A stretch of 64,000 bases of DNA from a bacterium. GTDB taxonomy: Bacteria; Krumholzibacteriota; Krumholzibacteriia; LZORAL124-64-63. Made by a program: the position numbers and the translations under genes. Below are positions 1 through 55,698 of this stretch, piece after piece (position 1 is the first letter of the stretch; every line of letters begins with the position of its first letter). Where the stretch lies: NCBI GenBank assembly GCA_016712675.1, contig JADJQR010000001.1, forward strand, positions 2,063,737 through 2,127,736, written 5' to 3'. The notes below the pieces were generated by a model. The model searched no databases, was not told the DNA's origin, and saw only the letters and a list, made by a program, of their open reading frames with translations.

Positions 1-57
1 CAGGCTGAGCGTGCGCCGCGGTGCATTGAGGCTCCCCTCAAGTCAAAGGTTTGTCCC

Positions 58-3459: not shown

Positions 3460-3504
3460 GCGTGGCTCCGCCGGGCACCGGCAAAGCAACGGAGAGGACG
3501 AGTC

Positions 3505-5277: not shown

Positions 5278-5304
5278 GGCGGACGCGGGGGAAGGGACAC
5301 CCGG

Positions 5305-6393: not shown

Positions 6394-6453
6394 GCCCGGG
6401 CGGCGGGACCGGCGGATTGACGGGCAGGGGCGGGTGCGGGAACCTGGAGGACC

Positions 6454-28845: not shown

Positions 28846-29919
28846 ATGCGCGTCGTAGCCTTGGCCAACCAGAAAGGTGGTTGCGGAAAGACCACCACCG
28901 CGACCAACCTCGCCGCCGCCCTGGCCCAACTCGGACACAAGGTCCTGCTGCTCGACAACGACCCGCAGGGGCACGCGACGCTGTCCTTCGGCTTCCGTGA
29001 GCGCGACTTCACGCTCAGCACCTACGACCTGTTCCTCACCACCGACATCCTGGTCGAGGACGCGTTTCTCGAGATCGAGCCGGGGTTGCACCTGGTGCCA
29101 GCGGGCGTGGAGCTGAGCGCGGTCGAGATGGCGCTGGCCCGGGAGCCCGAGCGTGACGTGCGCCTGCGCGACAACCTGCGGCGCAGCGCGCTGCCATACG
29201 ACTACATCCTGATCGACTGCCCGCCCAGTGTCGGCCTGCTCACGTTCAACGCGCTGCTGGCCAGTGGCGAGGTCATCATCCCGGTCGACCCGAGCTGCTA
29301 CGGGCTGCAGGCCGTGCGCAAGATGCGCGAGACGCTGACGATGCTGCGCCAGAAGAAGGGGCACGACGTCGTTCCGCGGGTCCTGATGTCGGGCTTCGAC
29401 ACCCGGCCGTTGTTCGTGCGGAAGATCATGGAGGAACTGGCGGAGCTGTACCCTGACGACCTCATGGAGACGATCATTCACCACACGGTGCGCTTCCGCG
29501 AGGCTGCGGGAGCGGGGCTACCTGTTGCCCGGCTCGATCCCGATTCGCGCGGCGCCCATGATTTCCGGATGCTCGCGCGCGAGGTAGCGGGCAAGGAGTC
29601 TCTCGTGGCGGTGCCGGCACTGGACCACTGGACGGCCCTGCTGCATGGCCCGCAGGTGACGAAGGCGGGCGTTCGCTTCGAGGCGGATTTCCCCAGGGCG
29701 CGCTCGGTGCGTTTGACCGGGACATTCTGCAACTGGTCGGCCAAGGGTCTGGCGCTGGCCAAGCGCGAGGATGGTATCTGGGAGGCCCATCTGCAGTTGG
29801 AGAACGGCCGGCACCAGTACCGCTTCATCGTCGATGGCGCCTGGCTGCCCGATCCGCACAACACCGAAACGGTAGCCAACGAATTCGGCGGGGCCAACAG
29901 CCTGCTGCTCGTGCCTTGA
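28846..29919 (+). CDS. ParA/Soj-family P-loop ATPase fused to a C-terminal CBM48 (AMPK-beta glycogen-binding-like) domain
   Basis: Deviant Walker A VVALANQKGGCGKTTTATNLAAALA and LLLDNDPQGHAT. The C-terminal ~90 aa read VRLTGTFCNWSAKGLALAKREDGIWEAHLQLENGRHQYRFIVDGAWLPDPHNTETVANEFGGANSLLLV, which is the CBM48 / AMPK1_CBM pattern. Confidence 0.8.
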   Translation: MRVVALANQKGGCGKTTTATNLAAALAQLGHKVLLLDNDPQGHATLSFGFRERDFTLSTYDLFLTTDILVEDAFLEIEPGLHLVPAGVELSAVEMALAREPERDVRLRDNLRRSALPYDYILIDCPPSVGLLTFNALLASGEVIIPVDPSCYGLQAVRKMRETLTMLRQKKGHDVVPRVLMSGFDTRPLFVRKIMEELAELYPDDLMETIIHHTVRFREAAGAGLPVARLDPDSRGAHDFRMLAREVAGKESLVAVPALDHWTALLHGPQVTKAGVRFEADFPRARSVRLTGTFCNWSAKGLALAKREDGIWEAHLQLENGRHQYRFIVDGAWLPDPHNTETVANEFGGANSLLLVP

Positions 29920-29947: not shown

Positions 29948-30799
29948 ATGCACCAGGGAACCGGAGACCACGGCATGATGGGTTGGCCACGACAGGGTGG
30001 TGGCGCCGGCGGCGGCAGCCGTGCACACCACATCGACGAGATCGCCCACCATTTCCTGGCCGAGGACGACGTCCCGCCGGCGGATATTCCGGCGGTGGTC
30101 GTCGATGCCGCCATTGCGGCGGCCGGGCCGGGGCGCGCGGCGGCCTGCGCAGCCGCCGGTTTGGCGGTCGCGGCCGGGACGATCGGGCTTGGCAGCTGCC
30201 TGATCGAGGACGATGCGGTGGCCTGGTCCTCGTTCTCCTTCCTCGGCCAGTCCCCGCCGCGGGCACTGCCACCGCCGCTGGCCGCGGATCTGCCACGAGG
30301 GGTTCGCTGCCGGAGGGTCGATGACGGCGCGCCGGTACCGCGCTCGTGGGTGCGTTGGCGTCTGCTGGGCGAAGCGTCGGAGGAAACTCTCGCCGCGTGG
30401 GAAGTGCCGAGCGGGCTGCCGGCGGCGGCGCGCGCCCGTATGCCACGCTGGGGAGCACTGGTGTGGTGCGTGGCACCACACGACGCGGCCTTGTCTGCGG
30501 CGCAAGATGCGCTGCGCCGCCTCGTGGGACTGCTTGAGCCGTCGCACGTGGAGTTCCTGGTGCTGCCGACGGCCTGGGACGCGCGGCCCGGCGGCTGGCG
30601 GCTGATCGGTCGGCGCAGCGACCCAGGCTGGCACAACCTGGCGCATCTGCAGGAGGTGGTTCGCGCGGCGGTGGGCGAGCGTCCGGCGGTCGTGCGCCTG
30701 GTTCCGGATGTCGGCGTCGCCGGGGCCGAGGCGGTGGCCGTCCTGGCCGAAATCGCCGGCGCGGTGGCCGGGTCGTCCGCTGCGCGGGCGGCGGGCTGA
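29948..30799 (+). CDS. hypothetical Ala-rich protein immediately downstream of the ParA-CBM48 gene
   Basis: 283-aa ORF 28 nt after the ParA stop, same strand. I recognise no motifs in it. Confidence 0.4.
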   Translation: MHQGTGDHGMMGWPRQGGGAGGGSRAHHIDEIAHHFLAEDDVPPADIPAVVVDAAIAAAGPGRAAACAAAGLAVAAGTIGLGSCLIEDDAVAWSSFSFLGQSPPRALPPPLAADLPRGVRCRRVDDGAPVPRSWVRWRLLGEASEETLAAWEVPSGLPAAARARMPRWGALVWCVAPHDAALSAAQDALRRLVGLLEPSHVEFLVLPTAWDARPGGWRLIGRRSDPGWHNLAHLQEVVRAAVGERPAVVRLVPDVGVAGAEAVAVLAEIAGAVAGSSAARAAG

Positions 30800-30867
30800 A
30801 CCACGGCCTCGTTTTCGGTGGACCGCGCGCCGCCCCTGACCTACCGTGCCGGCGTTGCCGTTCAGTC

Positions 30868-32280
30868 ATGCCCCATGGCTCGAGGTGCCCCGCGCCGATG
30901 CCCGCTTCGCCGTCCGGTCCCACATTGCCCCCGCTGGCCCTCGGGCTCTGGTGCGCGGCTTTGTTTACCCTCCCGTGGGTGGGCGCGGACCTGATCATCC
31001 TGCTGACCGGTCGCGATGCCGGGGCCGGGTTGCAACCGTCGTGGCTACTGGCGGCCGGCGCCTGGCTGGCCGCTGGCCGGCCTCGGCACCGGTGGCGCGT
31101 GCCCACCGTCTGGCGCCGAGTGGCGCTGCTGGCGGGGGCGGCCGTCCTGGTGTCGGGCGCCGGCCTGGTCGTGGCGCCGGCTCCGGTGGGTTGGGATCTC
31201 GCACTTGTGCGATTTCTCAAGCAAATCCTGCAACTAGCTGTCATGGCAATGTTTATGGCTTGGCCTGTCGTGCATCTGGTGGGCTCGCGTGAATGGAAGC
31301 GCACGGCGCAGTGGCTGGTGGCGGGCGCCCTCCTGCAGGCGGCCTACGGGGCGCTGCAGCAGGTCTCCGGTGCCGAGCCGTTGCCCCTGCTCGCGGCATT
31401 GGACGCGGTCTTCACGTCGAACCCGTCGATCCTCAGTGGATCGACGATGCTCTACGTGGGGGATCGCTTCGTCGACGTGCCGCGGCTGCGCGGCACCGCC
31501 TGCGAACCGCTCTACCTGGGCAACTACCTGCTGCTGGTGCTGCCGATGTTGGTGCTCACCGGCTGGCGACGGCGCTGGCGCCTGAGCGCTGCGGCGGTGC
31601 TCGGCCTGCTGTTGCTGCTGACCTGGTCCCGCGGCGCCTGGCTGGGGGCCGGAGCCGCTTGGGTGGTGGCGGCCTGGTGGGGACCGAGGGGCGCCGCATC
31701 TGCCCCCGCAACGCCTCGCCACCGGTGGCGGCGGTGGGTGGCCGGGCTTGCCGGGGCGTCGGGGCTGATCCTGCTGGCGATGGCCGCGGGCTGGGAGGAG
31801 GCCGGACTGCCTCTGCGGCGCTTGGCGCAGTCGTTCAGCCATCACGACTGGTCCAATCTCACGCGTCTCTACTCTGTGCAGGCCGCGTGGCGGGCGTGGC
31901 TTCTGAGTCCGGTGGTCGGCATCGGCTGGGGACAGTTCGGCTGGCACTTCCCGGCCCTCGTCGACCCGACCGGCCTGCAGGCGATGTTCACCTGGCCGGT
32001 GGTGGGCAACCTCCCGCTCCTGATTCTGTGCGAAACGGGACTGGCCGGCGCGGCAGCGCTCATCTGGGCCGCGGCCGGGCTGGCGCGTGGCGTCGTGCGT
32101 GCCCGACGGGAGCTTCGCTCGGCGGAAGGCCAGCGCGTCGGGGCCTGCGCGATCGCGGCAACGGGCATCGCAGTGCAGTACCTGTCGTTCTCGCAGTACA
32201 ACCTTGCCCATGCCTGGGTGGCCCTGGGCCTGCTGGCGACGGCGCTGCTGGAGGCCCGGCGCACGGGGAAGCCGGCATGA
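30868..32280 (+). CDS. O-antigen ligase / polymerase family (Wzy_C) membrane protein
   Basis: Multi-TM protein with the LLLLTWSRGAWLGAG O-antigen-ligase motif. Confidence 0.7.
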   Translation: MPHGSRCPAPMPASPSGPTLPPLALGLWCAALFTLPWVGADLIILLTGRDAGAGLQPSWLLAAGAWLAAGRPRHRWRVPTVWRRVALLAGAAVLVSGAGLVVAPAPVGWDLALVRFLKQILQLAVMAMFMAWPVVHLVGSREWKRTAQWLVAGALLQAAYGALQQVSGAEPLPLLAALDAVFTSNPSILSGSTMLYVGDRFVDVPRLRGTACEPLYLGNYLLLVLPMLVLTGWRRRWRLSAAAVLGLLLLLTWSRGAWLGAGAAWVVAAWWGPRGAASAPATPRHRWRRWVAGLAGASGLILLAMAAGWEEAGLPLRRLAQSFSHHDWSNLTRLYSVQAAWRAWLLSPVVGIGWGQFGWHFPALVDPTGLQAMFTWPVVGNLPLLILCETGLAGAAALIWAAAGLARGVVRARRELRSAEGQRVGACAIAATGIAVQYLSFSQYNLAHAWVALGLLATALLEARRTGKPA

Positions 32281-33410
32281 CGGCGCGTCCGGTCATCGTG
32301 CTTGAGGCGCTGTCCGTGCGCAACGAGCCGACGGGCGTGGCGGGCAGCGCGCGCGAGTTGATCATGGCGCTGGCGGCAAGGGAGCGCGGCTTCGACTTCG
32401 TCGTCGTTGCCGGTGACGGGACGGCGTTCGCCGACCTTGCCGACCTTCCCGACTGGAGCGTCCGCACGGCCGGCGCGGCAGGGGTTGGGCGGCGCGAGTG
32501 GGCACGCCAGGTGTTCGTGCCGGCGGTGTGTCGGCGGGTGGACGCGGCACTGGTCCACGCACTGCAGCCGGTGGCGCCGTGGGCGGCGCCCTGCCCGGTC
32601 GTCCTGACGGTGCACGACCTGGTCTGGCGGACGCTGCCGCACGTGATCGCGCAGCCGCGCCGGGCCTGGCTGCGCGCAGCGGTCCCTTTCTCGCTGGCCC
32701 GCGCGCACCTGCTATTGGCCAACAGCCGCGCGACGGCCTCGGCGCTGGCCACCGCATTCCCTCGCCTGGCCACGCGCGTGCGCGAGGTGCCGTTCGGAAC
32801 GCCGGGCTGGGCACTTGCGGGTGCCGGTCCAGCCCCTCCTCGGGCCGGCCGCGATTTCTTCCTCTTTGTGGGTACGATCGAGCCCCGCAAGAACCTGCCA
32901 CGCCTGCTCGACGCCTACGAGATCCTGCTCGCGCGGACGGCGGGAGAGGCCCCGGACCTCTGTCTGGCCGGGCCGCCCGGCTGGGGCCTGGGGCCGGTGA
33001 TGGAGCGTCTTGCGCGGCCTTCGCTCGCAGAGCGGGTCCGCCTGACCGGGTGGTGCGAACCGGAAGCCCTACGCGTGCTCTACGGCACGGCGCTGGCCCT
33101 GGTCTTTCCGTCGTTGGACGAAGGTTTCGGGTTGCCCGTGCTCGAGGCGATGGGCAGCGGCCTGCCCGTGCTCACGGCCGACCGCGGGGCGACTGCCGAG
33201 GTTGCCGGCGGCGACGCGCTTCTGGTCGATCCGGACGATACCATCGCCATCGTTGACGGCATGGCACGTCTGGCCCGCGATCCGGCCCTGCGCGCGCGCC
33301 TGGCGGCGGCAGGCCGGCGCCGGGCAGCGGCCTGGACCTGGACGCGCACAGCTGACTTGACGGCAGCGGCTTACGCCGAGATCGCCGCTCCTGCCGCAGC
33401 CAGAAAGTGA
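32277..33410 (+). CDS. glycosyltransferase family 1
   Basis: FVGTIEPRKNLPRLLDAY...EGFGLPVLEAMGSGLPVL; ATGA overlap with the upstream stop. Confidence 0.8.
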   Translation: MTARPVIVLEALSVRNEPTGVAGSARELIMALAARERGFDFVVVAGDGTAFADLADLPDWSVRTAGAAGVGRREWARQVFVPAVCRRVDAALVHALQPVAPWAAPCPVVLTVHDLVWRTLPHVIAQPRRAWLRAAVPFSLARAHLLLANSRATASALATAFPRLATRVREVPFGTPGWALAGAGPAPPRAGRDFFLFVGTIEPRKNLPRLLDAYEILLARTAGEAPDLCLAGPPGWGLGPVMERLARPSLAERVRLTGWCEPEALRVLYGTALALVFPSLDEGFGLPVLEAMGSGLPVLTADRGATAEVAGGDALLVDPDDTIAIVDGMARLARDPALRARLAAAGRRRAAAWTWTRTADLTAAAYAEIAAPAAARK

Positions 33411-33478
33411 TTGCCTGCCCAGCGGGCTTGCCGTAGCTTGCAGCCAGCGCCCGACTTCCTGCGGGGTCGGACGGATCG

Positions 33479-34756
33479 GTGTCGGTGGGAGGTAACGTGG
33501 AGCTCGAAATCGTCGCACTGCTGGGGTTCGCGGCAGCGTTCCTGATGTCGTGGCTGGTCCAGCCGCACTTCCGGAACCTCGGTTTCCTGACCGAGATCGT
33601 CGACCATCCCGGCTACCGGCGCGCGCACCGCGAGCCGGTGCCACGCACAGGCGGCATGGCGATCTTCATCTCGTTCTTCTGCGCGCTGTTCTTCCTGGAA
33701 CACGTCATCCTCGACACCCGCCTGCCCTGGTCATGGCTGGGTATCCTCAGTGGCGCCGGGCTGGCGATCCTGGCCCTGGGTGTCGGTGACGACCGCTTCG
33801 GGATCCATGCCGAGAAGAAGCTCTATGGCCAACTGGTGGTGATCCTCGCGCTGATGCTGTTCGGGCAGCGCCTCGACACGGTGACCATGCCCCTGGTCGG
33901 GACGGTCCCGCTGGGAGGCTGGGCCTGGCCGGTGACGCTGCTGTGGTACCTGGGCTTCATCAACTCGATGAACCTGATCGACGGACTGGACGGCCTGGCC
34001 AGCGGCATCAGCGTTCTGGCATCGGCGGCGCTCGTGGTCATCTCGATGGCCGTGCAGGAGATGTTCTCGACGCTCTTTGCAGCCACCGTCTGCGGTGCCA
34101 CCATGGCCTTCTTCTATTGGAACGTCAGCAAACGGAAGATCTTCCTGGGTGATTCCGGCAGCATGTGGATGGGGCTGGTGCTGGCCAGCCTGATGTTGAA
34201 CCTCAGCCAGATCGCGCCCATCCAGCTGCCGGTCCTGCTGGCGCCGATGATCGTGCCGATCTGGGACACGGGCACGACCATCATCCGCCGCTACCGCCGG
34301 CGCACCTCGATTTTCCAGGCTGACGACTTCCACCTGCACCACCGGCTGCTGCGGCTCGGGTTCTCGCCGGCAGGCGCGACCCTCTGTCTCCTGCTGGTGA
34401 CCACGGGCACGACGCTGTTCGCGCTGAGCGATTTCCTGGATGCGGCCTGGCTCGGTCTGCCCGCGATGGGGATGTGGATGGTCGCGGCGCAGCTTGGCGC
34501 CCAGCGGCACCTCCGGAACCGGCAACACGGCCTGGATCTCTTCAGCGAGTTGTCGTACGCGCTGGGCCTGGACGACCGGCTGGACAAGCTGACCGGACGC
34601 ATCGAACAGGACGTTGCCGACATCATCGACCTGCAGGCCGAACGGCAACGCGTGGCCCGTCTGAGGGCCGGCCGGCGCGACGGGACAACCGGAGCGGTGG
34701 CCGAGACGGAGGATGCACCGGTTGTCGTTCGACCCCGTTCCGGCGACCATTACTGA
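33479..34756 (+). CDS. WecA/MraY-family polyprenyl-phosphate N-acetylhexosamine-1-phosphate transferase with a ~100-aa C-terminal extension
   Basis: NSMNLIDGLDGLASG hallmark and a multi-TM profile. Confidence 0.8.
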   Translation: MSVGGNVELEIVALLGFAAAFLMSWLVQPHFRNLGFLTEIVDHPGYRRAHREPVPRTGGMAIFISFFCALFFLEHVILDTRLPWSWLGILSGAGLAILALGVGDDRFGIHAEKKLYGQLVVILALMLFGQRLDTVTMPLVGTVPLGGWAWPVTLLWYLGFINSMNLIDGLDGLASGISVLASAALVVISMAVQEMFSTLFAATVCGATMAFFYWNVSKRKIFLGDSGSMWMGLVLASLMLNLSQIAPIQLPVLLAPMIVPIWDTGTTIIRRYRRRTSIFQADDFHLHHRLLRLGFSPAGATLCLLLVTTGTTLFALSDFLDAAWLGLPAMGMWMVAAQLGAQRHLRNRQHGLDLFSELSYALGLDDRLDKLTGRIEQDVADIIDLQAERQRVARLRAGRRDGTTGAVAETEDAPVVVRPRSGDHY

Positions 34757-35378
34757 ACTCTGCCGGGGAGCGTCGGCGTCCTGGCGGGCCCTGGAACTGG
34801 GCTGCGGCGACGGCCAGATGCGGGCGCACGTACGCGCCGCCGGTGCCTGGTGCGCCGGCCTGGACTGCGCGCCCCGCGGCCTGGCAGCCGCCGTCGATGT
34901 CCGCGGTGATGCCCGCCACCCGCCGCTGCGGGCCCGTTCGCTGGATCTGGTCCTGGCGGCCAACCTGGTCCGCCATCTGGTCCCCGGCGATCCGGAGTTG
35001 CGGTTCCTCGCCTCCTGGCTGGAGCTGTTGCGACCGGGCGGTTCGGTGTTCGTGCTGGAGGATGAGCCGTCATCCGGGGCCGCGGCCGCCAACCATCGCG
35101 ACCTCCAAGCGCTCCTGGCCCGGTTGGCCCCGACGGCGCGCGGGCCCTTGCTGGCCAAAGATACATTCGAGACCTTGTTGCCCGCGCACCTGCGCAGGTG
35201 CGTCGTGGCCGGTGGCACCGAAGCCAACCGGTGGCGGCAGGACGCGGCCGCTGCCATGGCGATGCTCGCCAGTGGACACCCGCGCGCGGGCGGGGAAGCG
35301 GACCGCTTGCTGTCGGCGATCCGCCGGCACGGACTGGAGTGCGGCCGCATGTGGTGGCTGCGCCTGCAGGCCGAATGA
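34713..35378 (+). CDS. class I SAM-dependent methyltransferase
   Basis: ALELGCGDG motif I. Overlaps the wecA-like 3' end by 44 nt, so the start is uncertain. Confidence 0.6.
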   Translation: MHRLSFDPVPATITELCRGASASWRALELGCGDGQMRAHVRAAGAWCAGLDCAPRGLAAAVDVRGDARHPPLRARSLDLVLAANLVRHLVPGDPELRFLASWLELLRPGGSVFVLEDEPSSGAAAANHRDLQALLARLAPTARGPLLAKDTFETLLPAHLRRCVVAGGTEANRWRQDAAAAMAMLASGHPRAGGEADRLLSAIRRHGLECGRMWWLRLQAE

Positions 35379-35390
35379 ACCGATAGGCGA

Positions 35391-35435
35391 CGGACCGACA
35401 GACGATGGACCGACAAGCAAGGGACCGACAAGGCG
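35391..35435 (+). repeat. three direct repeats of GGACCGACA with 15-bp period
   Basis: GGACCGACAgacgat / GGACCGACAagcaag / GGACCGACAaggcgt between the methyltransferase stop and the likely start of the downstream orphan. Confidence 0.7.
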
Positions 35436-35467
35436 TGAAGCGACGAGTCCGGACGGGGAGGGGCGGC

Positions 35468-36766
35468 ATGGCGCGACGCAGGCGCGGCGTTCTGATGGTC
35501 ACGCTGGTCGGGGCGCTGGCTGGCCTGGCCTTCCTGACGGCTGGACAACCGGGTGCGGTGGATTGGCGTCGCCTGCGCGCCGTGGCCTTGCACAGTGACG
35601 ATTGGGGTTTGGCGGGCTTCGTGCCGTCGGTCGACGCCTGGGTCGGCTTGGACAGGGCAGCCCTGTCTCCTGGGCGCTTCCCGGACGTCTACTGGAATTC
35701 GACGCTCGAGGACAGCGCCTGCGTGGCCCGGTTGGCGGCGGTTTTGGCCGGCGGCCGCGGGCGCGACGGGCGCCCGGCCGTCCTGCAGCCGAACTACGTG
35801 GTGTCGGCGCTGGACTGGACCGGCGGACAGTGGGTCCGGCGAGACCTGCCCGACTTCCCGGAGACCTACCGACGGCCCGGGCTGTGGCAGGCGATGGCCG
35901 AAGCCATGTGGGCCGGGGTTTGGTATCCCGAGTACCATGCGGCCTGGCATTACGACCCGCAACGGCGACGTCAGGCGGTCGCTGCCGGCGGCGTGGCCCT
36001 GGCGGCGGCCGAACGGGGGGTCATGCTCTTCCCGGGCAGCGAAGCGGCGCGGGAATTGGGCCCGTGGCGTCCGACCTCCGAACTTGCCGCGGAGCTCGAT
36101 GCCGGACTGGCCGTGTTCACGGCGGCCTTCGGACGGGGTCCGGGTTCCATCATCGCACCTGATTACACCTGGGATGGCCGCTGCGAGGACCTGTGGGAAT
36201 CCCGGGGGCTGACCGTGATCCAGGCCAAACGCGAGCAGCGCCACCCGGGTCTGCCGCCGGGCGCTGGTGGCCGGGTGCTCAAGGTCCTGGATCGGCAGTG
36301 GTCGCGGGCGCGCCATCGCGGCCGGATCTACCTCGAGCGCAATTGCCGGTTGGAGCCGGCACAGGCGCCTGACGCGGGTGCGGTTGTGGCGGCGTGCCTG
36401 GATCAGACGCGGCGCGCTTGGCGGTGCGGAGAGCCAGCCATCGTCGAGACCCACCGCGTGAATTTCGCGCACGGCGACGCGGCCGTGGCTGCGGCCGGAC
36501 GCGAGGCCTTGGCCGTCTATCTTGCCGGGCTGGCAGGGCTGGGGGAGACGGGCCCGGTATTCCTGGTCGATGCCGAGATCGCCTCCCTGGTTCGCCGGGG
36601 GACAAGCCTGGTCGAGGCTGGCGACGTCCTGGTGGCACGAAACGGCACCCGTTCGCGGCGCCTGGCGATCCCGGTCGCGCCGGCGGGTCCGCCGAAGGGG
36701 ACGGTAGCGTTGTACCTGCTCGAAGGAGGGTTCCAGGGCCTGGTGGCGGCCGGGCGTTCTCGCTGA
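35468..36766 (+). CDS. hypothetical secreted protein (RRRR plus hydrophobic N-terminus)
   Basis: MARRRRGVLMVTLVGALAGLAFLTA is signal-like, possibly Tat. Otherwise unrecognised; HSDDWGL is weakly deacetylase-like. The track ORF starts at 35405, within the repeats. Confidence 0.45.
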   Translation: MARRRRGVLMVTLVGALAGLAFLTAGQPGAVDWRRLRAVALHSDDWGLAGFVPSVDAWVGLDRAALSPGRFPDVYWNSTLEDSACVARLAAVLAGGRGRDGRPAVLQPNYVVSALDWTGGQWVRRDLPDFPETYRRPGLWQAMAEAMWAGVWYPEYHAAWHYDPQRRRQAVAAGGVALAAAERGVMLFPGSEAARELGPWRPTSELAAELDAGLAVFTAAFGRGPGSIIAPDYTWDGRCEDLWESRGLTVIQAKREQRHPGLPPGAGGRVLKVLDRQWSRARHRGRIYLERNCRLEPAQAPDAGAVVAACLDQTRRAWRCGEPAIVETHRVNFAHGDAAVAAAGREALAVYLAGLAGLGETGPVFLVDAEIASLVRRGTSLVEAGDVLVARNGTRSRRLAIPVAPAGPPKGTVALYLLEGGFQGLVAAGRSR

Positions 36767-36846
36767 CATCGGTCCGGCGTCGGTCTTCGAACATGGCCTG
36801 TCAATTATGATTATTTTGAGAGGCGGACGTGGCTACTTTTGTGTCA

Positions 36847-36875
36847 TTGACCAATTTTGCCGTCTTTGGTATAGT
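36847..36875 (+). promoter_or_regulatory. near-consensus sigma70 promoter TTGACC-N17-TATAGT in an AT-rich island
   Basis: -35 TTGACC at 36847-36852, 17-nt spacer, -10 TATAGT at 36870-36875. The local AT-rich patch (36800-36880) sits in a 70 % GC genome. It lies ~255 nt upstream of the C25 protease start. Confidence 0.6.
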
Positions 36876-37130
36876 CTAGGGACCGCCCACGGGAGCATTC
36901 GCACCAACTTCGGCGCTTGGCCGCTGCGGGAACACGATTCCCGCCCAGCGGTCGATCGGGAGGAAGCCAGGTCTCTCTGTTAACGAGCAGCAGTCCCGGT
37001 ATTTGAACGGCAGCCACCCGTTCGGTACTCGGGCAGGATCGACCAGAGGTTCCCGAGGTTCGCGCCTCGTCACGACTGTTGACGTCACCGTCCGTTCATT
37101 CGGGCGTTCGCCCCGACCGGAGGCCAGCAG

Positions 37131-40100
37131 ATGAATGCGTCCGTCATCCGTGTCTTGTCCCGCTTCGCCCTCGCGGGCACGCTCGCGATCCTGGCTCCCC
37201 TCAGCGCCCTGGGCGCCGGTGCGGGCGTCGTGGTCCATGAAGGTTCGTTCGCGGCGCGCGATCTCGCCTGGGAGCGCGATCGCGACGGCGCGGCCTATCC
37301 CGCGCTGCCCGGTCTGCGCGGCATCGATGATCCCGGCAGCCCACGCCTGCCGTTGCAGACGCTGCTGTTGCTCGTGCCAGCTGACGCGAACGTCGTCGAC
37401 GCCTGGATCGAGCCGCTGCAGACGCACGCCGAGAAGGTCCCCGGCCCGCTGGCGCGGGGCGAGGCCCTGTTCACCGACACCGGCGGGAAGGTGTTGACCA
37501 AGCGCCTTCCCGATGACGGTGCGACCTACCCGGCCGCCTGGGGTCGCTTCGCCGGCACCCACACCTGGCGCGGCTACCGCCTGCTCGCCGTCGAGGTCTA
37601 TCCCCTGCGGCAGGCCGGCGAGGGCGACGAGATCACGCTGGAGTTCCTGGACCGCTACGCGGTACGCGTCGCCTACGGCGCGACGCCGCCCTCTGACGAC
37701 ATGGCCATTCGCGGCCGTCTGTCCGCGGCCGAGGTGAAGGCGAACAACGACATGCTGGCACGCCTGGTGGCCAACCCCGGCGAACTTGCCGGCTACCGGC
37801 GCGAACACGGCGTGGCCGTGGCGACGCCAGCCGGCGGCTTCAGTCCCGACAAGACGCCTAGCTTGTCCGGCAGCGCGGTCGAGTACCTGATCATCACGAA
37901 CGAGGCGATGAAGCCGGCGTTCGAGGTGCTGGCGGCCCACAAGACGGCCCAGGGTCTGCCGACGGTCGTCGCCACGCACGAGTTCATCGAGGCGAACTAC
38001 CGGCAAGGCGCGGATCTGCAGGAATCGGTGCGGATGTTCATCCGCGACGCCTACGAGAAGTGGGGTTTGGAGTATGTGCTGCTGGGTGGCGACTCGGACG
38101 TCCTGCCTCCGCGCTACGTGATCAATTCCTTCTACCCTATCAGCGGTTCCACGGCGATCCCCTGCGATCTGTACTTCGCGTGTCTTGACGGCAGCTGGAA
38201 CGCGGACGGGGACCATCTCTATGGCGAACCGGTCACCGCCACGACCACGGGTGACCTGGCCGACTTCGCCGAGGAGGTCTACATCGGGCGCGCAGCGGTC
38301 TCGACGCCGGAAGCCGCGACCGTCTTCGTGAACAAGGTGATCGGCTACGAGGGTGTGCCCGCGGGCGCCGCCTGGACGAACCGCGCGCTGTTCGCGGCCG
38401 AGGTGCTGTTCCCGGAGGACTTCCAGCACGAGGGTTACATCATCCTGGACGGCGCGAAGTTCGCCCACGAGCAGATCGTCAACCACATCCAGCCGTGCAC
38501 CGACATGGAGTACACCCGGATGTACGAGACCGACCTGCAGTACCCGCGTGACGCGGGTCTGACGCGGGCGGCATTGGTCGACACGCTGGACACCGGCCAC
38601 TACGGCATCGTCAACCAGATCGGCCACGGCTACTACTTCAACATGTCTGTTGGCGACGCGAACTTCATGACGACCGACGCCGACAACCTGACCAACGCCG
38701 GGCGCCCGTTCATGATCTACGCGCTCAACTGCGCCTCGGCCGCCTTCGACAACAGTTGTCTGCTCGAGCGGTTCGTGCAGAACCCGGGCGGCGGTGCCGT
38801 CTGCTCGATCGGGTCGGTTCGCGCGGCATTCCCGAACAACTCGAACGCCTACCAGCAGGAGTTCTTCAGCGAGTTGTACTGTACGGCGGAGAACCGCGTC
38901 GGCCGTCTGCTGGCGCTGAGTCGGCTGCCGTTCATCGGGTTGACGGCCAACAATTACGTCGACCGCTGGACGTTCGAGAACTACACGCTGCTCGGGGATC
39001 CGACGCTGCCGATCTGGACCGGCGTTCCGCAGGCGGCGTCGGTGGCGGCTCCGGCTTCGCTCGCCGTCGGCGCGCAGGTCCTGCCGGTCACCGTCACCGT
39101 TGCCGGGATGCCCGTCGCCGGCGCGCGCGTTTGCCTGCAGAAGGCAGGCGAGGAACTGGCCTGGGGCCTGACCGATGGGGCCGGGCAGGTCAGCCTGTCC
39201 GTCCTGCCGACCAGCCCCGGTTCGGCCACCCTCACGGTGACGGGACGCAATCTGGCCCGGTACGCGGCCACGCTGCCGGTGGTCGCCGGCGGCGCCTATC
39301 TGAAGGTCGAATCCGCGTTCATCGCGGACAACGGTGTCGGGGGGAGCGACGGCAACGGGGACGGTTTCGCCGACGCGGGCGAGACCATCGCGATCTGGAT
39401 GGTCCTGCGCGAGACGGGGGGCGTGCCGGCGACCGGCCTGGTCGGCACGGTCAGCTGCGCGCAGCCCGGGGTGACGATCCTGGTGCCGACGGCTTCGTTC
39501 GGGTCGGTTCTGGCGGGGGGCACCGCCCCGGCTCTGACCCCGCTCGTGGTGGCGATCGATCCGGCAGTGGTCGACGCGGCGACGCTGGTGTTCACGATGG
39601 ACGTCGCGCACGGCGGCGGCAGTTCGTTGTCGGAGTGGCCCCTGACGGTGAGGGCGCCCGAGCTCGAGGTCGCCCTTCTGGACTGGGAAGACGCGACGTG
39701 GGGCGACGGGGACGGCATGCTCGAGATCGGCGAACGCCTGGGTGTGACGGTGGCCGTCAAGAACTACGGCACCGGGGCGAGCGGCCCGGTGACCGGCGTC
39801 CTGCGGACCGACAGCGCCTTCGTGACGCGCTACGACTCGCTGGCGACCTGGGCGACCCTGGGCCTGCTGGAAGAGGGGACCGGCGGCCCCGCGTTCTCGA
39901 TGGCAATCGATCCCAGCCGCAACAGTGCCGCGCGGATCGTCCTGACGGACGCTCACGGACGCACGCTGCGGCACGACTTCACGCTGCCGCGGCCGGACAC
40001 GCCGACGGGGATCAATACCGACACTTCGCTGGGCGCCGATGTCATCGCCATCTCCTGGGCGCCATCGGTGGCGACGGACATCCGTGGGTATCACGTGTAC

Positions 40101-41966
40101 CGCAGCCAGTCGGTCGATGGACCTTGGACGCGGGCCAATCAGGACCTCGTGCTGGGGTCCTCGTACTTCGCCGACACGGGTCTGGCGCAGTTGACGACGT
40201 ACTACTACAAGGTCGGCGGCGTGGACCAGTCGGGAGTGCCGAGCAACCTGTCGGCCGCGGTCAGCCGCAGCACGGCGCCGGCCGAGGCGCCGAACTTCCC
40301 GGCGGCGTTCGGCGGCGAGACCAGCAGTCCCCTGGCTGTGGGGGACGTCGACGGGGACGGGGACCTCGAGATCGTCGTGGCAAGCAACCAGGTCTACGTT
40401 TGGCACCATAGCGGCCTGGAGCTGCTCGACGGTGACAACGACTCGCAGACGCTCGGCAATTTCACCGATTTCGCGCCGGGCGCGGTCCTGCAGCCGGCGG
40501 CGGTCGCCCTGGCCGATCTCGATGGCGAGCCGGGCCTGGAGATGATCATCAGCGAACGGGCCCCAAATTACAGTATCCATGTCTACACGAAGACGGGCGA
40601 GGAGCTGGCCGGCTGGCCGCGCTCGCTCGAACTCCCGGTGGCCCGTGCCTGGAACTGGGCCGCGCCGGCCGTGGGAGACATTGACGGCGATGGCGAGCCC
40701 GAGATCGTGGTCAACACGCTCAATGGCACAGTCTGGGCCTGGAACGCGGACGGCAGCGAGGTGCGCGACGGGGATGCCAATCCGGCGACCTCGGGTGTCT
40801 TCTACAAGCGTGCCGGAGCCGAATACGAGTGGTCCCGCAGCGGCCCGACCCTGGTCGACCTCGACGCGGACGGTGCGCTGGATATCGTCTTCGGCACGAA
40901 GAACGACAGCTCGGGGCTGAAGCGTGTCATGGCGCTGAAGTACGATGGGTCGTTCGTGCCCGGCTTCCCGCAGGTCGTGGACGGCGGGGTGAATACCGAC
41001 GTCGTCTGCGGCGATCTGGACGGCGACGGGCAGCTCGAACTGGTTCTGTACACGACTGCGGGCACGGTGTACGCGCTGCACGCGAACGGGACCAACTATC
41101 CGGGGTATCCGAAGTCGACGGGCCTGGCCTCGATTCCCGACTGGGTCACGGTGCCGGCATTGGGCGATATCAACGGTGACGGCTTCCTGGAGATCGTCTA
41201 CGCGCCCAACCAGTCCGGCCTGATCGGCAGACTGGTGGCCCTGTCGACCAACCATGTCGCCGGTACCAGTGGCCTGTTCGTGCCGGGTTGGCCGGCGACG
41301 TTGCCGGGCAGTTCGGAGGGCAGCCCGGTGATCGGGGACATCGACGGCAACGGCTCGCCGGAGATCCTGCACGGGATCGGGGGCGGCGACGCGGCGGCGC
41401 CGTACAACCTGTACGCGTTCCATGCGGACGGCACGTCGGTGCCCGGCTTCCCGATCACGCTCAGTGGCCCGTTGATGAACGGCGTGACGATCACCGACCT
41501 GGATGCCGACGGCGACGTGGACATCGCCTACGCGGGTTGGGACTTCCTCTGCCACGTGTGGGACATGCCGTTCGCCTACGACCGTCACGCCGTGCCCTGG
41601 CCGACGTTCAAGGGCAACGTGCGCCGGACCGGGGTCTACTTCCCGGTCCAGCTGGTGGGGGTGGACGACGGACCGGCCGTGCCCGCGGCGGCCCTGCAAC
41701 TGGACCGTCCGTATCCGAACCCCTTCAACCCGACCACGAGGTTCAGCCTCTACGTCGCTGCGCGCGGCGACCTGCAGGTGGACATCTACGATGTGCAGGG
41801 ACGGCGCGTGAGGGAACTCCACACCGGACCGATCGAGGCGGGCTGGCACACGCTGGTGTGGGACGGTCGCGACGACGAGGGACGCGGGCAGGCCAGCGGC
41901 GTCTATCTGGTGCGGGCCCGCGCGGCGGGCGAGGCGAGCCTCCAGAAGATGACCCTCGTGAAATAG
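37131..41966 (+). CDS. gingipain-family (C25) cysteine peptidase with FG-GAP/VCBS repeats and a T9SS C-terminal sorting domain
   Basis: Signal peptide; C25 His/Cys dyad context (NQIGHGYYFN ... YALNCASAAFDN); at least 7 FG-GAP-like repeats (GDVDGDGDLEIVVAS, GDIDGDGEPEIVVNT, VDLDADGALDIVFGT, GDLDGDGQLELVLYT, GDINGDGFLEIVYAP, GDIDGNGSPEILHG, TDLDADGDVDIAYAG); C-terminal PYPNPFNPTTRFSLYV...VDIYDVQGRRVREL...GWHTLVWDGRDDEGRGQASGVYLVRA matches Por_Secre_tail. Confidence 0.85.
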   Translation: MNASVIRVLSRFALAGTLAILAPLSALGAGAGVVVHEGSFAARDLAWERDRDGAAYPALPGLRGIDDPGSPRLPLQTLLLLVPADANVVDAWIEPLQTHAEKVPGPLARGEALFTDTGGKVLTKRLPDDGATYPAAWGRFAGTHTWRGYRLLAVEVYPLRQAGEGDEITLEFLDRYAVRVAYGATPPSDDMAIRGRLSAAEVKANNDMLARLVANPGELAGYRREHGVAVATPAGGFSPDKTPSLSGSAVEYLIITNEAMKPAFEVLAAHKTAQGLPTVVATHEFIEANYRQGADLQESVRMFIRDAYEKWGLEYVLLGGDSDVLPPRYVINSFYPISGSTAIPCDLYFACLDGSWNADGDHLYGEPVTATTTGDLADFAEEVYIGRAAVSTPEAATVFVNKVIGYEGVPAGAAWTNRALFAAEVLFPEDFQHEGYIILDGAKFAHEQIVNHIQPCTDMEYTRMYETDLQYPRDAGLTRAALVDTLDTGHYGIVNQIGHGYYFNMSVGDANFMTTDADNLTNAGRPFMIYALNCASAAFDNSCLLERFVQNPGGGAVCSIGSVRAAFPNNSNAYQQEFFSELYCTAENRVGRLLALSRLPFIGLTANNYVDRWTFENYTLLGDPTLPIWTGVPQAASVAAPASLAVGAQVLPVTVTVAGMPVAGARVCLQKAGEELAWGLTDGAGQVSLSVLPTSPGSATLTVTGRNLARYAATLPVVAGGAYLKVESAFIADNGVGGSDGNGDGFADAGETIAIWMVLRETGGVPATGLVGTVSCAQPGVTILVPTASFGSVLAGGTAPALTPLVVAIDPAVVDAATLVFTMDVAHGGGSSLSEWPLTVRAPELEVALLDWEDATWGDGDGMLEIGERLGVTVAVKNYGTGASGPVTGVLRTDSAFVTRYDSLATWATLGLLEEGTGGPAFSMAIDPSRNSAARIVLTDAHGRTLRHDFTLPRPDTPTGINTDTSLGADVIAISWAPSVATDIRGYHVYRSQSVDGPWTRANQDLVLGSSYFADTGLAQLTTYYYKVGGVDQSGVPSNLSAAVSRSTAPAEAPNFPAAFGGETSSPLAVGDVDGDGDLEIVVASNQVYVWHHSGLELLDGDNDSQTLGNFTDFAPGAVLQPAAVALADLDGEPGLEMIISERAPNYSIHVYTKTGEELAGWPRSLELPVARAWNWAAPAVGDIDGDGEPEIVVNTLNGTVWAWNADGSEVRDGDANPATSGVFYKRAGAEYEWSRSGPTLVDLDADGALDIVFGTKNDSSGLKRVMALKYDGSFVPGFPQVVDGGVNTDVVCGDLDGDGQLELVLYTTAGTVYALHANGTNYPGYPKSTGLASIPDWVTVPALGDINGDGFLEIVYAPNQSGLIGRLVALSTNHVAGTSGLFVPGWPATLPGSSEGSPVIGDIDGNGSPEILHGIGGGDAAAPYNLYAFHADGTSVPGFPITLSGPLMNGVTITDLDADGDVDIAYAGWDFLCHVWDMPFAYDRHAVPWPTFKGNVRRTGVYFPVQLVGVDDGPAVPAAALQLDRPYPNPFNPTTRFSLYVAARGDLQVDIYDVQGRRVRELHTGPIEAGWHTLVWDGRDDEGRGQASGVYLVRARAAGEASLQKMTLVK

Positions 41967-41990
41967 GGGATCCAGCGAGGCGCTCATGCG

Positions 41991-42017
41991 GCCGCCGGGC
42001 GAAACCAGCCCGGCGGC
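41991..42017 (+). terminator. hairpin after the C25 protease gene
   Basis: GCCGCCGGGC-gaaacca-GCCCGGCGGC, a 10-bp stem. Confidence 0.5.
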
Positions 42018-42102
42018 TGCTGCGTCCTTGTGGGCGTAGATTGACGGGAGGGACGGGACCCCGGTAAGCTCAGCGTGCGCCAGATGGCGCCGGAGGACGA
42101 GC

Positions 42103-43749
42103 ATGGACGTGCGGCACGGGACGCGGGCGACGACGGCCGGGCGGGCGGCCTTGGGCTGGGCGCTGGCCTTGGCGCTCCTGGCCGGCTGCAGCCGGCGCGA
42201 GGGAGCGCCTCCGGCCGCGCGGGATCCGGTTCCGGTGTCGGGAGGCACGGCCCTGGTGGCGTTGGCCTCCGAACCGGACGTCCTGAACCCGCTGCTTCAT
42301 GCCTCGGCCACGGCGGGGCAGGTCATTGCGGAACTGCACGACGGACTGACCGACATGGATGAGTCGCTCGAGTACGTGCCGCGCATCGCGCGCAGCTGGG
42401 ACCTGGCTCCGGACAGCCTGTCGATCACCTACCACCTGAAGCCATGGCGCTGGTCGGACGGGCAACCGCTGACCGCGCGGGATGTCGTGGAATCGCTCGG
42501 TCTGTTCAAGGACGAGCGTGTCGCGAGCCGCCGCCGCAGCCTGTACGACGCGGTGACCGGCGCTGTCGCGCTCGATGACAGCACCGTGCGCTACGACCTG
42601 GCACGGCCGCTGCCGGATCCCGTTCAGGCGACCTGGCACCATGTCCTGCCCTGGCACGTTGTCGGCGGGCTGGATCCGGCGACCGTGGCCTCCTGGTCGA
42701 TCAATCGCCAGCCGCTGGCCTCGGGCGAGTTCCAACTCGAGTCCTGGGCCCCCGGGCGGGAGCTGGTGCTGACCCGCAACCCGTACTATCCGGGCAGGGC
42801 AGCGCGGTTGGAACGCGTGGTCTTCCGTATCGTGCCGGAAGAGGCGACGCGCCTGCTCATGCTCGAGACCGGGGAAGTCGACGTCGCGGACGGCGTCTCG
42901 CCCGCGGCGGCCGGCAGGCTGGAGGCGCGCGGTGACCTGCGCCTGGTGGCAACCGGGGGGCGGCGCATCTATTACCTGCAATGGAACTGCCGCAACCCCG
43001 CCCTGGCCGACGCGGGGACGCGGCGGGCGCTGTCCTTGGCGTTGGACCGCGACCGCATGGTGGCCACCCTGCTCGCCGGCTACGGGCGCACGGCCGTGGG
43101 GCCGATTCCACCCGTGATGTGGAATCATCACCGGGACCTGGCGCCGCCAGCATGCGATCCGCCGGCCGCACGGCGCGAACTGGCGGCGGCCGGTTGGACC
43201 GACAGCGACGGCGACGGCGTCCTGGAGCGGGGCGGTCGTCCGTTGAAGTTGGAGATGCTGACGCGCAGCGGCGATCCGGTGCGTGAACAGGGCGCGGTGA
43301 TCATCCGGGAGAACCTGCGCGCGGTGGGTGCCGACGTCCAGGTGCGCACGATGGAACAGGTGGCCGGCCTCGAACGCGTGCGTGAAGGGCTGTTCGACGC
43401 CTATTTCGGGTTGCTGGTCGCGAACCTGCACGGGAACCCGTCGCCGTACGTGCGATCGACTGCGGTCGGCGAGTACAACCAGGGTCACTACGCCAACGCG
43501 ACCGTTGATTCCCTGCTGGACACGGCACTTTCGGAACCCGATCGGCAGCGCGCGCTGCCCGCCTGGTTGCGCCTGCAGGAGGTCCTCGCCGCGGATCCTC
43601 CCTCGGCGTACCTGTTCTATCCCGATATCCTGGTGGCGGTGAACCGTCGCCTGCGTGACGTGCGCCCCCACCTGCTGTCGCCGGTCAACAACCTGGCCGA
43701 ATGGTGGATCGCGCCGGCCTCAATGCGCAGAGGGAAGGTCTCCGAATGA
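42103..43749 (+). CDS. ABC transporter substrate-binding lipoprotein, family 5 (peptide/nickel type)
   Basis: Lipobox LLAGCS; SBP_bac_5 features (NPLL...DGLT, RNPYYPG). Confidence 0.8.
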   Translation: MDVRHGTRATTAGRAALGWALALALLAGCSRREGAPPAARDPVPVSGGTALVALASEPDVLNPLLHASATAGQVIAELHDGLTDMDESLEYVPRIARSWDLAPDSLSITYHLKPWRWSDGQPLTARDVVESLGLFKDERVASRRRSLYDAVTGAVALDDSTVRYDLARPLPDPVQATWHHVLPWHVVGGLDPATVASWSINRQPLASGEFQLESWAPGRELVLTRNPYYPGRAARLERVVFRIVPEEATRLLMLETGEVDVADGVSPAAAGRLEARGDLRLVATGGRRIYYLQWNCRNPALADAGTRRALSLALDRDRMVATLLAGYGRTAVGPIPPVMWNHHRDLAPPACDPPAARRELAAAGWTDSDGDGVLERGGRPLKLEMLTRSGDPVREQGAVIIRENLRAVGADVQVRTMEQVAGLERVREGLFDAYFGLLVANLHGNPSPYVRSTAVGEYNQGHYANATVDSLLDTALSEPDRQRALPAWLRLQEVLAADPPSAYLFYPDILVAVNRRLRDVRPHLLSPVNNLAEWWIAPASMRRGKVSE

Positions 43750-43784
43750 TGGTCATCCGCGGGCTGATCCCGTATATTCAGGTC

Positions 43785-47237: not shown

Positions 47238-49622
<2,385 letters not shown>

Positions 49623-49648
49623 CGCCGGCCGGGCCGGGAAGGGACACG

Positions 49649-51989: not shown

Positions 51990-52597
51990 TCTGGCGTGCA
52001 CCGCCCGGCCCGGTGCCCCGCGATGGGCCGATCCTGTTCATCGACCGTGACGGCGTGCTCATCGTCGACAGGGACTACTTGGCGGATCCCGCCGGCGTCG
52101 AGTTGATTCCTGGCGTGCCGGCAGCGCTACGCGCGGCGGCTGCCGCCGGCTATGCCCTGGTCGGGATCTCCAACCAGAGCGGCGTGGGGCGTGGCCGATT
52201 CGGCCAAGCCGAACTGACAGCCGTGATGGAGCGGGTGGACGAGGCACTGGCGGAAGCCGGCGCCGGCCTCGACGCGATGTATTACTGCCCGCACGCCCCG
52301 CAGGACGATTGCCGTTGCCGCAAGCCGGGGCCGGGCCTGATCGAAGAGGCGTCCGCCTCGTTCCGCTGGGACGTGGGCCGTGCGTGGGTGATCGGCGACA
52401 AGGCCAGCGATGTCGAACTCGGTCGCCGGCTGGGTCTCGGCGCCGTGCTGGTGGCGACCGGCTACGGCGCCGGCGAGCGAGCCCTGGTTGCGGCCGCGCG
52501 TCCGGGCGACGAGCGCGTGCGGTTCGCCGCGGACCTGTCGGCCGCCGTTGAGGTCATCCTCTCCCTTGCGCCGGACGCTGGCGGGGGGACGCCATGA
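51986..52597 (+). CDS. gmhB: D,D-heptose 1,7-bisphosphate phosphatase (HAD-IIIA)
   Basis: LFIDRDGVL...CPHAPQDDCRCRKPGPGL (the Zn-binding CxH...CxC of GmhB); ATGA overlap with the waaF stop. Confidence 0.8.
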   Translation: MIWRAPPGPVPRDGPILFIDRDGVLIVDRDYLADPAGVELIPGVPAALRAAAAAGYALVGISNQSGVGRGRFGQAELTAVMERVDEALAEAGAGLDAMYYCPHAPQDDCRCRKPGPGLIEEASASFRWDVGRAWVIGDKASDVELGRRLGLGAVLVATGYGAGERALVAAARPGDERVRFAADLSAAVEVILSLAPDAGGGTP

Positions 52598-55654: not shown

Positions 55655-55698
55655 ACCCTGGCGACCGCCCGCAGGTGGTCCCTTCCCGAGGCGGATGC

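Follow-up and report, generated by a model that had tools for sequence, protein, structure and literature searches.

A conserved glycan gene cluster beside a gingipain-type peptidase gene in Krumholzibacteriota and its possible link to surface anchoring of type IX secretion cargo

Introduction

In Porphyromonas gingivalis, type-A cargo of the T9SS (type IX secretion system) is amide-linked to an amine-bearing linking sugar of anionic lipopolysaccharide (A-LPS), the synthesis of which needs VimE, a carbohydrate esterase family 4 (CE4) enzyme required to expose the amine of that sugar (PMC7468200). The Porphyromonas anchor is a complete, WaaL-ligated lipopolysaccharide (LPS; PMC13086638), and the pathway described in P. 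gingivalis and T. forsythia comprises WbaP, GtfC/F, VimF, VimE, VimA, Wzy and WaaL together with a PorU/PorZ attachment complex. T9SS substrate anchoring is also WaaL-dependent in Cytophaga hutchinsonii, where cargo with a type-A C-terminal domain (CTD) depends on a single O-antigen-ligase gene to be anchored at the outer membrane (PMC12860637). Here we describe a locus within a 64,000-nucleotide stretch of contig JADJQR010000001.1 from a Krumholzibacteriota genome (hereafter, the window), in which five glycan genes directly precede the gene for a gingipain-type C25 peptidase that carries a type-A CTD.

Positions 30868–41966 of the window had been singled out by an earlier inspection of the DNA without database searches (the sequence-only reading), which suggested that the glycan genes form a dedicated anchoring module for T9SS cargo. 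The enzyme classes of the A-LPS pathway are indeed mirrored here beside the cargo gene, with an initiating transferase, a GT4 glycosyltransferase, a CE4-fold deacetylase and a Wzy_C protein (PMC7468200, PMC13086638). The two systems differ in that A-LPS genes in Porphyromonas are dispersed and do not lie beside gingipain genes, whereas those described here are clustered; the initiator is of the WecA rather than the WbaP type; and the 64-kb window contains a methyltransferase gene but no Wbp genes or VimA-like aminoacyl transferase. The dependence seen in Cytophaga is the generic form of the link considered here, although it was demonstrated by gene deletion in a cultured member of the Bacteroidota, whereas ours is read from gene neighbourhood alone.

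Results

Genes were called using third-position GC content (GC3), with start codons checked, and families were assigned by Pfam and NCBIfam profile scans of the window proteins. The window has a G+C content of 67–77%, which corrects the earlier figure of 70%, and the genome, earlier described as unlike those of Bacteroidetes, is that of a Krumholzibacteriota organism. Almost every gene in the window lies on the + strand, including the six co-oriented genes of the flagged stretch, from the Wzy_C gene through to the C25 peptidase gene, all of which were present at or beside the positions originally assigned to them. For comparison, a scan of species-representative genomes yielded 80 loci from Krumholzibacteriia metagenome-assembled genomes (MAGs) and three Eisenbacteria-type loci (35–37% identity), and the window proteins were compared with six-frame open reading frames (ORFs) of all 85 loci, which are referred to below by L numbers. 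Based on these data, we describe the locus as two adjacent, separately transcribed envelope units conserved across Krumholzibacteriota. Unit 1 (30868–36766) is a predicted five-gene operon for a short undecaprenyl-linked glycan, while Unit 2 (36845–45353) combines a strong promoter, a leader RNA, a protease zymogen with a propeller and CTD, and OppA-like and metzincin-like lipoproteins.

The first gene of Unit 1 encodes a predicted polytopic membrane protein of the Wzy_C family (30868..32280, +), bearing out the earlier assignment to the O-antigen ligase family: its PF04932 score is above the cutoff, if marginally (36.1 versus 31.7 bits), and the protein had no match in the NCBIfam scan. The NCBI version of this protein has 439 amino acids (aa) and starts at 30961. 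Several hydrophobic segments can be read from the sequence, the motifs TWSRGAW (with R224) and GWGQFGWHF (with H329) are invariant in orthologues, and PF04932 is carried by all Wzy_C orthologues among the matches listed (120 of 248 homologues; Krumholzibacteriota-type). A profile of 25 orthologues matched no solved structure, and no solved WaaL, at E ≤ 10.

Next is the glycosyltransferase gene expected between the ligase-family and WecA-like genes, which we term GT4 (32277..33410, +; Glycos_transf_1 87.8 bits, Glyco_transf_4 43 bits). The true ATG of this gene lies at 32277 and overlaps the stop codon of the Wzy_C gene within the sequence ATGA, indicating translational coupling. The predicted WecA-like initiating transferase follows as a WecA-type polyprenyl-phosphate N-acetylhexosamine (HexNAc)-1-phosphate transferase (33479..34756, +), a member of the WecA/MraY superfamily (PF00953, Glycos_transf_4, 116.9 bits) that scores 124.6 bits with TIGR02380, below the cutoff of 326, and less with the mraY model (52.9 bits). 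The methyltransferase was also correctly recognized and is a class I S-adenosylmethionine (SAM)-dependent enzyme (34713..35378, +; Methyltransf_11 40.5 bits), whose start lies inside the end of the preceding WecA-type gene, an overlap kept in relatives. All five glycan genes are tightly packed, with overlaps or short gaps, and the spacing in relatives is equal.

The fifth gene (35468..36766, alternative start 35405, +) had been called a secreted orphan. Its product has no Pfam or NCBIfam family match, as that label implied, but according to an AlphaFold2 (AF2) model and Foldseek searches it is a membrane-anchored CE4/NodB-fold de-N-acetylase-like enzyme that is probably periplasmic. The model (pLDDT 89.9, pTM 0.90) has a single N-terminal helix at residues 2–24 preceded by MARRRR, and its best Foldseek matches were 3rxz, Salmonella ArnD (8t0j), HP0310, IcaB, Agd3, PgaB and BpsB, with a probability of 1.00 and TMt of 0.55–0.61 for 3rxz, 8t0j and 3qbu. 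SDDWG (D44–D45) and H157-x3-H161 are invariant in orthologues, and we infer that they form the Asp/His/His metal site of NodB enzymes. A permissive Pfam scan of six orthologues gave one weak GH57 match only, and comparison of a family profile with the sequences of solved structures gave nothing useful. Of 211 homologues, those listed are Krumholzibacteriota-type, annotated as hypothetical and without a Pfam domain, so that judging from these sequences the family is restricted to Krumholzibacteriota.

The CE4-like protein shares its fold and Asp/His/His metal motif with ArnD, PgaB, IcaB and PgdA, of which ArnD is likewise a de-N-acylase, freeing the amine of its own undecaprenyl-linked sugar substrate. 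It differs from all four in its low structural similarity (TM only 0.4–0.6), ~150 extra residues, lack of a Pfam match and confinement to one phylum, and from VimE of the A-LPS pathway in being membrane-anchored, probably periplasmic and too divergent for PF01522. In two long-read MAG loci (L038 and L062, about 7–10 kb), the methyltransferase and C25 genes apparently have no CE4-like gene between them; ORFs are fragmented in L062 and L057, and assembly indels are a possible cause of the apparent loss.

The Wzy_C domain is common to ligases and O-oligosaccharyltransferases (O-OTases), and dedicated O-OTase loci are known in the form of pilin–TfpO/PilO pairs and S-layer slg clusters with WsaB/WsfB. 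Unit 1 resembles these loci in placing a Wzy_C enzyme, an initiating transferase, one or more glycosyltransferases and a methyltransferase beside the gene of a highly expressed surface protein; it differs in that their substrates are pilins or S-layer proteins and not T9SS cargo. The Wzy_C protein might accordingly be a PglL/TfpO/WsaB-type O-OTase that moves a short methylated glycan from undecaprenyl pyrophosphate onto the protease or onto many surface proteins. Its lack of sequence similarity to solved WaaL would fit such a role, as would a short pathway with a methyltransferase beside a gene whose strong promoter and long leader are like those of abundant surface proteins. We nevertheless regard protein O-glycosylation as improbable, given that the Bacteroidetes sequon D(S/T)(A/I/L/V/M/T) is not enriched (3 observed versus 6.1 expected), that dispersed paralogues of the peptidase have no O-OTase neighbour and that nothing here separates an O-OTase from a ligase.

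The principal gene of Unit 2 encodes the 1611-aa C25 peptidase recognized by the sequence-only reading (37131..41966, +), with a Peptidase_C25 (PF01364) score of 195.1 bits against a cutoff of 23 over residues 252–627. A Sec signal peptide, MNASVIRVLSRFALAGTLAILAPLSALGA, was read by eye at the N terminus (residues 1–~30) and is followed by a prodomain (~31–220), the catalytic domain (252–627, with H499/C534), an immunoglobulin superfamily (IgSF) domain (633–720), a beta-sandwich region, an FN3 domain (956–1046), an FG-GAP propeller (~1060–1500) and the T9SS type-A CTD (1523–1611; 41697–41963). Eight DxDxDG-type loops were counted in the propeller, which therefore has eight repeats and not the seven reported earlier. 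The motifs NQIGHG (H499) and LNCAS (C534) align with the GHG and Cys motifs of RgpB, and both catalytic residues are conserved without exception in sets of 13 and 37 homologues. Full-length homologues number more than 120, of 1590–1650 aa and 47–88% identity, named as Krumholzibacteria or Krumholzibacteriota.

Among solved structures, RgpB was the best match of the peptidase by sequence (45 bits) and by family profile (68.6 bits), compared with 19 and 42.7 bits for PorU and 37.4 bits for Kgp. An AlphaFold model of residues 1–750 (pLDDT 70) matched the catalytic and IgSF domains of Kgp and RgpB (TM 0.69–0.75, E 1e-19 to 1e-21) and, separately, the N-terminal prodomains of both proteins (E 1e-7 to 1e-5), while PorU was distant (TM 0.18). 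The modelled arrangement of prodomain, catalytic domain and IgSF domain is that of a gingipain-type zymogen rather than of PorU. In common with RgpB and Kgp of P. gingivalis, the peptidase has a Sec signal, a prodomain, a caspase-like His/Cys domain, an IgSF domain and a type-A CTD, but identity in structural alignments is only 17–20%, and beta-sandwich domains, FN3 and the FG-GAP propeller occupy the place of the gingipain haemagglutinin/adhesin region. Also unlike gingipains, it belongs to a high-GC Krumholzibacteriota host and its gene has its own structured leader RNA.

The best NCBIfam match of the C25 part is the PorU model, which, together with the propeller and the strong conservation, prompted a different assignment, that the protein is itself the attachment enzyme, joining a PorU-like sortase to a PorZ-like propeller so as to present the glycolipid made by the neighbouring genes. 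A CTD is retained in both PorU and PorZ, the latter consisting of beta-propellers (PMC12398890); moreover, the length and sequence of the peptidase are unusually conserved across the phylum. We rejected this candidate on thresholds, profile scores and fold, and consider it very improbable. The PorU model (NF033707) scored 100.1 bits against a cutoff of 420 with only the C25 core aligned, both sequence and profile matches favour RgpB, and the fold comparison given above points the same way. In addition, no PorV gene is adjacent, and repeated duplication, both in tandem and to dispersed sites, is not typical of core-machinery genes.

In a neighbour-joining tree of C25 copies, the dispersed copies (L021, L023, L028, L031, L049, L066 and L076) are recent lineage-specific duplicates, whereas the tandem copies (L037, L047, L048, L052, L056, L063, L064, L067, L070–L072, L074, L075, L077, L079 and L080) are old. 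The old tandem pairs sit after the CE4-like gene and the recent dispersed copies among radical-SAM, Ddl-like and RND-efflux genes.

The C terminus of the peptidase is of the Por_Secre_tail type, as had been suggested, with a TIGR04183 score of 27.4 bits (cutoff 23; residues 1528–1606) and the motifs PNPFNP...GxY...KMTLVK at its end. It also matches FlgD_ig (44 bits), which raised the question of an FlgD-Ig-like domain without a sorting role. We built a hidden Markov model (HMM) of the last 90 residues and searched the related loci and then, exhaustively, 1.84 billion representatives. In the related loci, the domain occurred at the exact C terminus of unrelated proteins of ~230–890 aa. The exhaustive search returned 198,074 matching representatives; the best 150 of these included ~75 single-match proteins (90–1624 aa), essentially all with the match ending at or near the last residue, and the rest had 2–16 copies of the same Ig-like fold. 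The best-scoring matches were giant proteins of 1250–4000 aa with 9–16 internal tandem FlgD-Ig-like copies. Multi-repeat giants alongside terminal single copies indicate that the fold serves in two ways, as a repeat within proteins and as a sorting tag at the terminus. From this distribution as a modular tag on unrelated proteins, the CTD of the peptidase behaves as a sorting tag and not as FlgD. Small CTD-bearing proteins (~230–250 aa) were also seen 5–9 kb upstream of the dispersed C25 copy in L021, L028 and L031.

Krumholzibacteriota branch with the Fibrobacterota–Chlorobiota–Bacteroidota (FCB) superphylum. Since T9SS and its CTDs count among the described features of that superphylum (PMC12398890), a T9SS tag in this phylum is unsurprising; the earlier claim of T9SS cargo outside Bacteroidota thus holds with respect to the CTD, but not as a surprise. 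Our literature search found no report of T9SS in Krumholzibacteriota or neighbouring candidate phyla. The surroundings of the paralogue and outgroup loci contained no T9SS gene and no SprA-sized ORF, with radical-SAM, Ddl-like, RND efflux, ClpB, UvrD-type helicase and GlnS/GluRS-type genes as neighbours.

The CE4-like and peptidase genes are separated by a gap of 364 bp, which contains a sigma-70-type promoter (36845..36875, +) and the ~250-nt 5' leader of the peptidase mRNA (36882..37130, +; structured conserved core 36923–37074). The promoter, cATTGACC-N17-(TG)GTATAGT, is of the extended -10 type and is the only 10/12 sigma-70-like site in the 18 kb scanned (28–46 kb). CATTGAC-N17-TGGTATAGT is invariant in a 10-locus alignment, and each of 33 sources (the window plus 32 loci) has the motif a single time; where its offset was measured, it falls ~30–380 nt upstream of the C25 reading frame or coincides with its start. 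Promoter and leader also accompany some copies that have no glycan genes before them, being found ahead of one dispersed paralogue (L012) and of the second copy in a tandem (L067); they belong to the peptidase gene and not to the glycan operon.

The leader motif has a single occurrence in the window, where 0.01 would be expected, and a single one in each of 25 loci, and the leader had no Rfam match when 28–46 kb was scanned at E ≤ 1. A covariance model (R1) built from ten sister-clade sequences was searched against 1.6 Mb of related loci, yielding 23 matches, all on the + strand and each just upstream of a C25 gene as expected (for example, L003 9769–9933, L014 9728–9901 and L019 9040–9188, with 20 other loci). 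In the leader alignment, 92.6% of cells pair and ten pairs show double-sided changes; none of 500 shuffles reached the observed values, and the covariation score was 0.320 compared to ≤0.099 in slid controls. Its elements are an enclosing long-range helix, a variable hairpin with covariation at all five pairs and a GAGG/CCUC hairpin that is invariant. The window copy (36923–37074) is divergent and its R1 score of 9.1 bits is not significant, its homology resting on sequence blocks shared in the alignments and on the motif match. In this copy, two partners are available to the 5' strand GGGAAC, a local one (UUCCCG) and a distal one (GUUCCC), hinting at alternative structures. By its sequence conservation and covariation, the leader RNA is a candidate new cis-regulatory motif in an uncultured phylum.

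We then asked how far the two units are kept together in relatives, using the 48 loci that were informative, those with 6.8 kb or more of sequence before the first C25 gene. The complete set of five glycan genes precedes that gene in 35 of the 48, and four of the five do so in another 4. Glycan genes adjoin C25 across the phylum. One locus (L085) has a weak GT4 match only, and the remaining 8 have no glycan genes, comprising five dispersed paralogues (L021, L028, L031, L049 and L076) and the outgroup/Eisenbacteria loci L082–L084. In a deep clade (L072, L074, L079 and L080; 37–39% identity), genes for a ParA-CBM ATPase, Wzy_C, GT4, WecA, CE4 and C25 are kept, as is the methyltransferase where detected (L074 has four of the five glycan genes), and the two tandem C25 genes there have ClpB after them in place of SBP5, LexA, Hsp20 and Lon. 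Module content is invariant across the phylum, unlike that of typical O-antigen loci, which points to a conserved glycan. Many MAGs with the locus (L009, L013, L015, L023, L024, L037, L047 and others) were deposited as Fibrobacteraceae, Gemmatimonadales or Gemmatimonas sp., probably mislabels.

Two lipoprotein genes complete Unit 2. An SBP_bac_5 (OppA-like) lipoprotein gene (42103..43749, +; PF00496 267.6 bits, lipobox LLAGC) follows C25 in most main-clade loci at a distance of 5–190 nt (5 nt in L003) and is probably co-transcribed with it; no ABC permease or ATPase genes are nearby. The second lipoprotein (43785..45353, +; lipobox LAPGC) had no Pfam or NCBIfam match, and a metzincin-type HELGHALGLAAH motif was read from its sequence. 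Main-clade loci conserve its gene downstream of those for the peptidase and SBP5, and in L082 a relative lies upstream of C25.

Upstream of Unit 1, a ParA/MinD-like P-loop ATPase is fused to a CBM48/AMPK1_CBM domain (28846..29919, +; AAA_31 157 bits, AMPK1_CBM 47 bits). Its gene precedes the glycan genes wherever the upstream flank was seen in the main and deep clades and is present in outgroup L082; its membership of the glycan module is uncertain. Between this gene and Unit 1 lie the gene of a 283-aa, family-less orphan (29948..30799, +) and a weak terminator-like hairpin (30793–30809). The orphan had no Pfam or NCBIfam match, and searches at E ≤ 10 with orphans and orthologues gave none that was usable. 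In the deep clade, a 640–710-aa protein takes its place.

These upstream genes bear on whether Unit 1 might instead make a Wzy-dependent exopolysaccharide or capsule, with the Wzy_C protein as polymerase, the ATPase and orphan as a co-polymerase/kinase-like pair and the CE4-like enzyme partially deacetylating the polymer in the manner of PgaB and IcaB. PgaB, IcaB and Agd3 are among the fold matches of that enzyme, and the ATPase weakly matches BY-kinase models, but it matches ParA/MinD far better and has no Tyr cluster. Similarly, the deep-clade protein of L072 (1775–3904) gave a GNVR match of 21.6 bits, although this is below the cutoff and was seen in one of the two such proteins tested. With no flippase or Wza-like export gene in the window either, we see little likelihood of an exopolysaccharide product.

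Further downstream, positions 49541–57961 contain four consecutive GT9 (heptosyltransferase-like) genes followed by DUF3108, PMT_2/ArnT-like and Bac_transf (WbaP-type) sugar transferase genes. Because this LPS-core region has no Wzy_C gene of its own, the gene at 30868 is the sole ligase candidate within the window. At the opposite end, positions 30–7494 hold an ordinary chemotaxis cluster (CheA, CheW, a methyl-accepting chemotaxis protein (MCP) with a Tll0287-like sensor, CheB and CheR) and then groES/groEL, which are unrelated.

Discussion

We tentatively favour the reading that Unit 1 makes a glycolipid that anchors type-A T9SS cargo generically and is not dedicated to this protease, a reading drawn largely by analogy. 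The WecA-type enzyme would load HexNAc-1-phosphate onto undecaprenyl phosphate, the GT4 enzyme would add a sugar and the SAM methyltransferase would modify the product. After flipping, the membrane-anchored CE4-fold enzyme would remove an N-acyl group, exposing a free amine, and the Wzy_C enzyme would ligate (or polymerise) the product onto an acceptor on the periplasmic face, most likely lipid A-core. The protease would be exported by Sec, translocated by T9SS via its CTD and anchored to a WaaL-dependent, LPS-type glycolipid, by analogy with Porphyromonas (PMC13086638) and Cytophaga (PMC12860637). Unit 1 may be considered the best candidate for the maker of this glycolipid.

Such a glycolipid would serve all type-A cargo, and Unit 1 would then not be a one-protein module; the downstream OppA-like and metzincin-motif lipoproteins also suggest that the protease belongs to a protein-degradation/peptide-capture operon. 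The dedicated module first proposed is not upheld, in view of the peptidase gene's own promoter and leader, the paralogues and outgroups without glycan genes and the collinear unrelated genes. We therefore consider a dedicated anchor pathway unlikely and a generic, LPS-type one plausible. A more specific version, in which the five genes are a compact equivalent of the dispersed A-LPS linker pathway, build the glycolipid to which type-A cargo would be transpeptidated, with the periplasmic CE4 enzyme freeing the acceptor amine, and are kept beside a flagship cargo controlled by a structured leader RNA not described before, strikes us as doubtful.

Several observations weigh against an anchoring role for Unit 1. 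No T9SS core gene (SprA/Sov, PorV, PorK/L/M/N or PorU) was found in the 64-kb window or in 1.6 Mb of related loci, and the window has no flippase in addition to the missing Wbp-pathway and VimA-like genes. The Wzy_C protein is, as far as sequence can tell, not separable into ligase, polymerase or O-OTase. The CE4-like protein has no PF01522 match even at E ≤ 10 in six orthologues and, while of the same enzyme class as VimE, is not its orthologue. CTD-bearing C25 proteins occur without adjacent glycan genes at the five dispersed paralogue loci and at L082–L085 (with the weak GT4 match in L085), and the promoter and leader are those of the peptidase gene. Finally, collinearity in the main clade extends for more than 20 kb and takes in unrelated genes (DUF212, LexA, Hsp20 and Lon). 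In outgroup L082, DUF212, ParA-CBM and an Mzn550-like gene stand upstream of ClpB and C25 and glycan genes are absent, so that adjacency by itself is weak evidence.

Many of the same data suit the main rival account, which we regard as quite possible: a conserved envelope glycan, such as an LPS O-unit, a core extension or an antigen like the enterobacterial common antigen (ECA), is made beside an independent protease/peptide-capture operon, and the two are held together by inherited synteny without a functional link. The separate conserved promoter and leader, the SBP5 gene 5 nt past the protease gene in L003 with lipoproteins as both downstream products, the collinearity with housekeeping genes, the L082 arrangement and the paralogues without adjacent glycan genes are all in line with this account, and the LPS-core genes 8–20 kb downstream (four GT9, PMT_2 and Bac_transf) suggest a general envelope region. 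However, the junction between glycan and C25 genes is kept in the deep clade though the other downstream neighbours have changed, the module mirrors gene classes specific to A-LPS (PMC7468200, PMC13086638) and its phylum-wide invariance is unusual for an O-antigen locus.

The proteins described here are new members of known families, and the conserved pairing of a compact, CE4-containing glycan pathway and a gingipain-like T9SS protein, should it be functional, would add a new variation on A-LPS anchoring. Tethering of T9SS cargo is understood in only a few Bacteroidota, where the anchor pathway involves about eleven dispersed genes. Were Unit 1 to make the anchor, that pathway would have a minimal counterpart conserved across a phylum, showing that a simple de-N-acetylated amino sugar can act as acceptor and offering a defined set of genes with which to engineer surface display through CTDs. 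Should there be no such link, the locus would simply be an envelope-glycan operon lying next to an operon for a secreted protease. Separately from the question of anchoring, the conserved promoter and covarying leader RNA of the peptidase gene constitute a candidate new cis-regulatory RNA.

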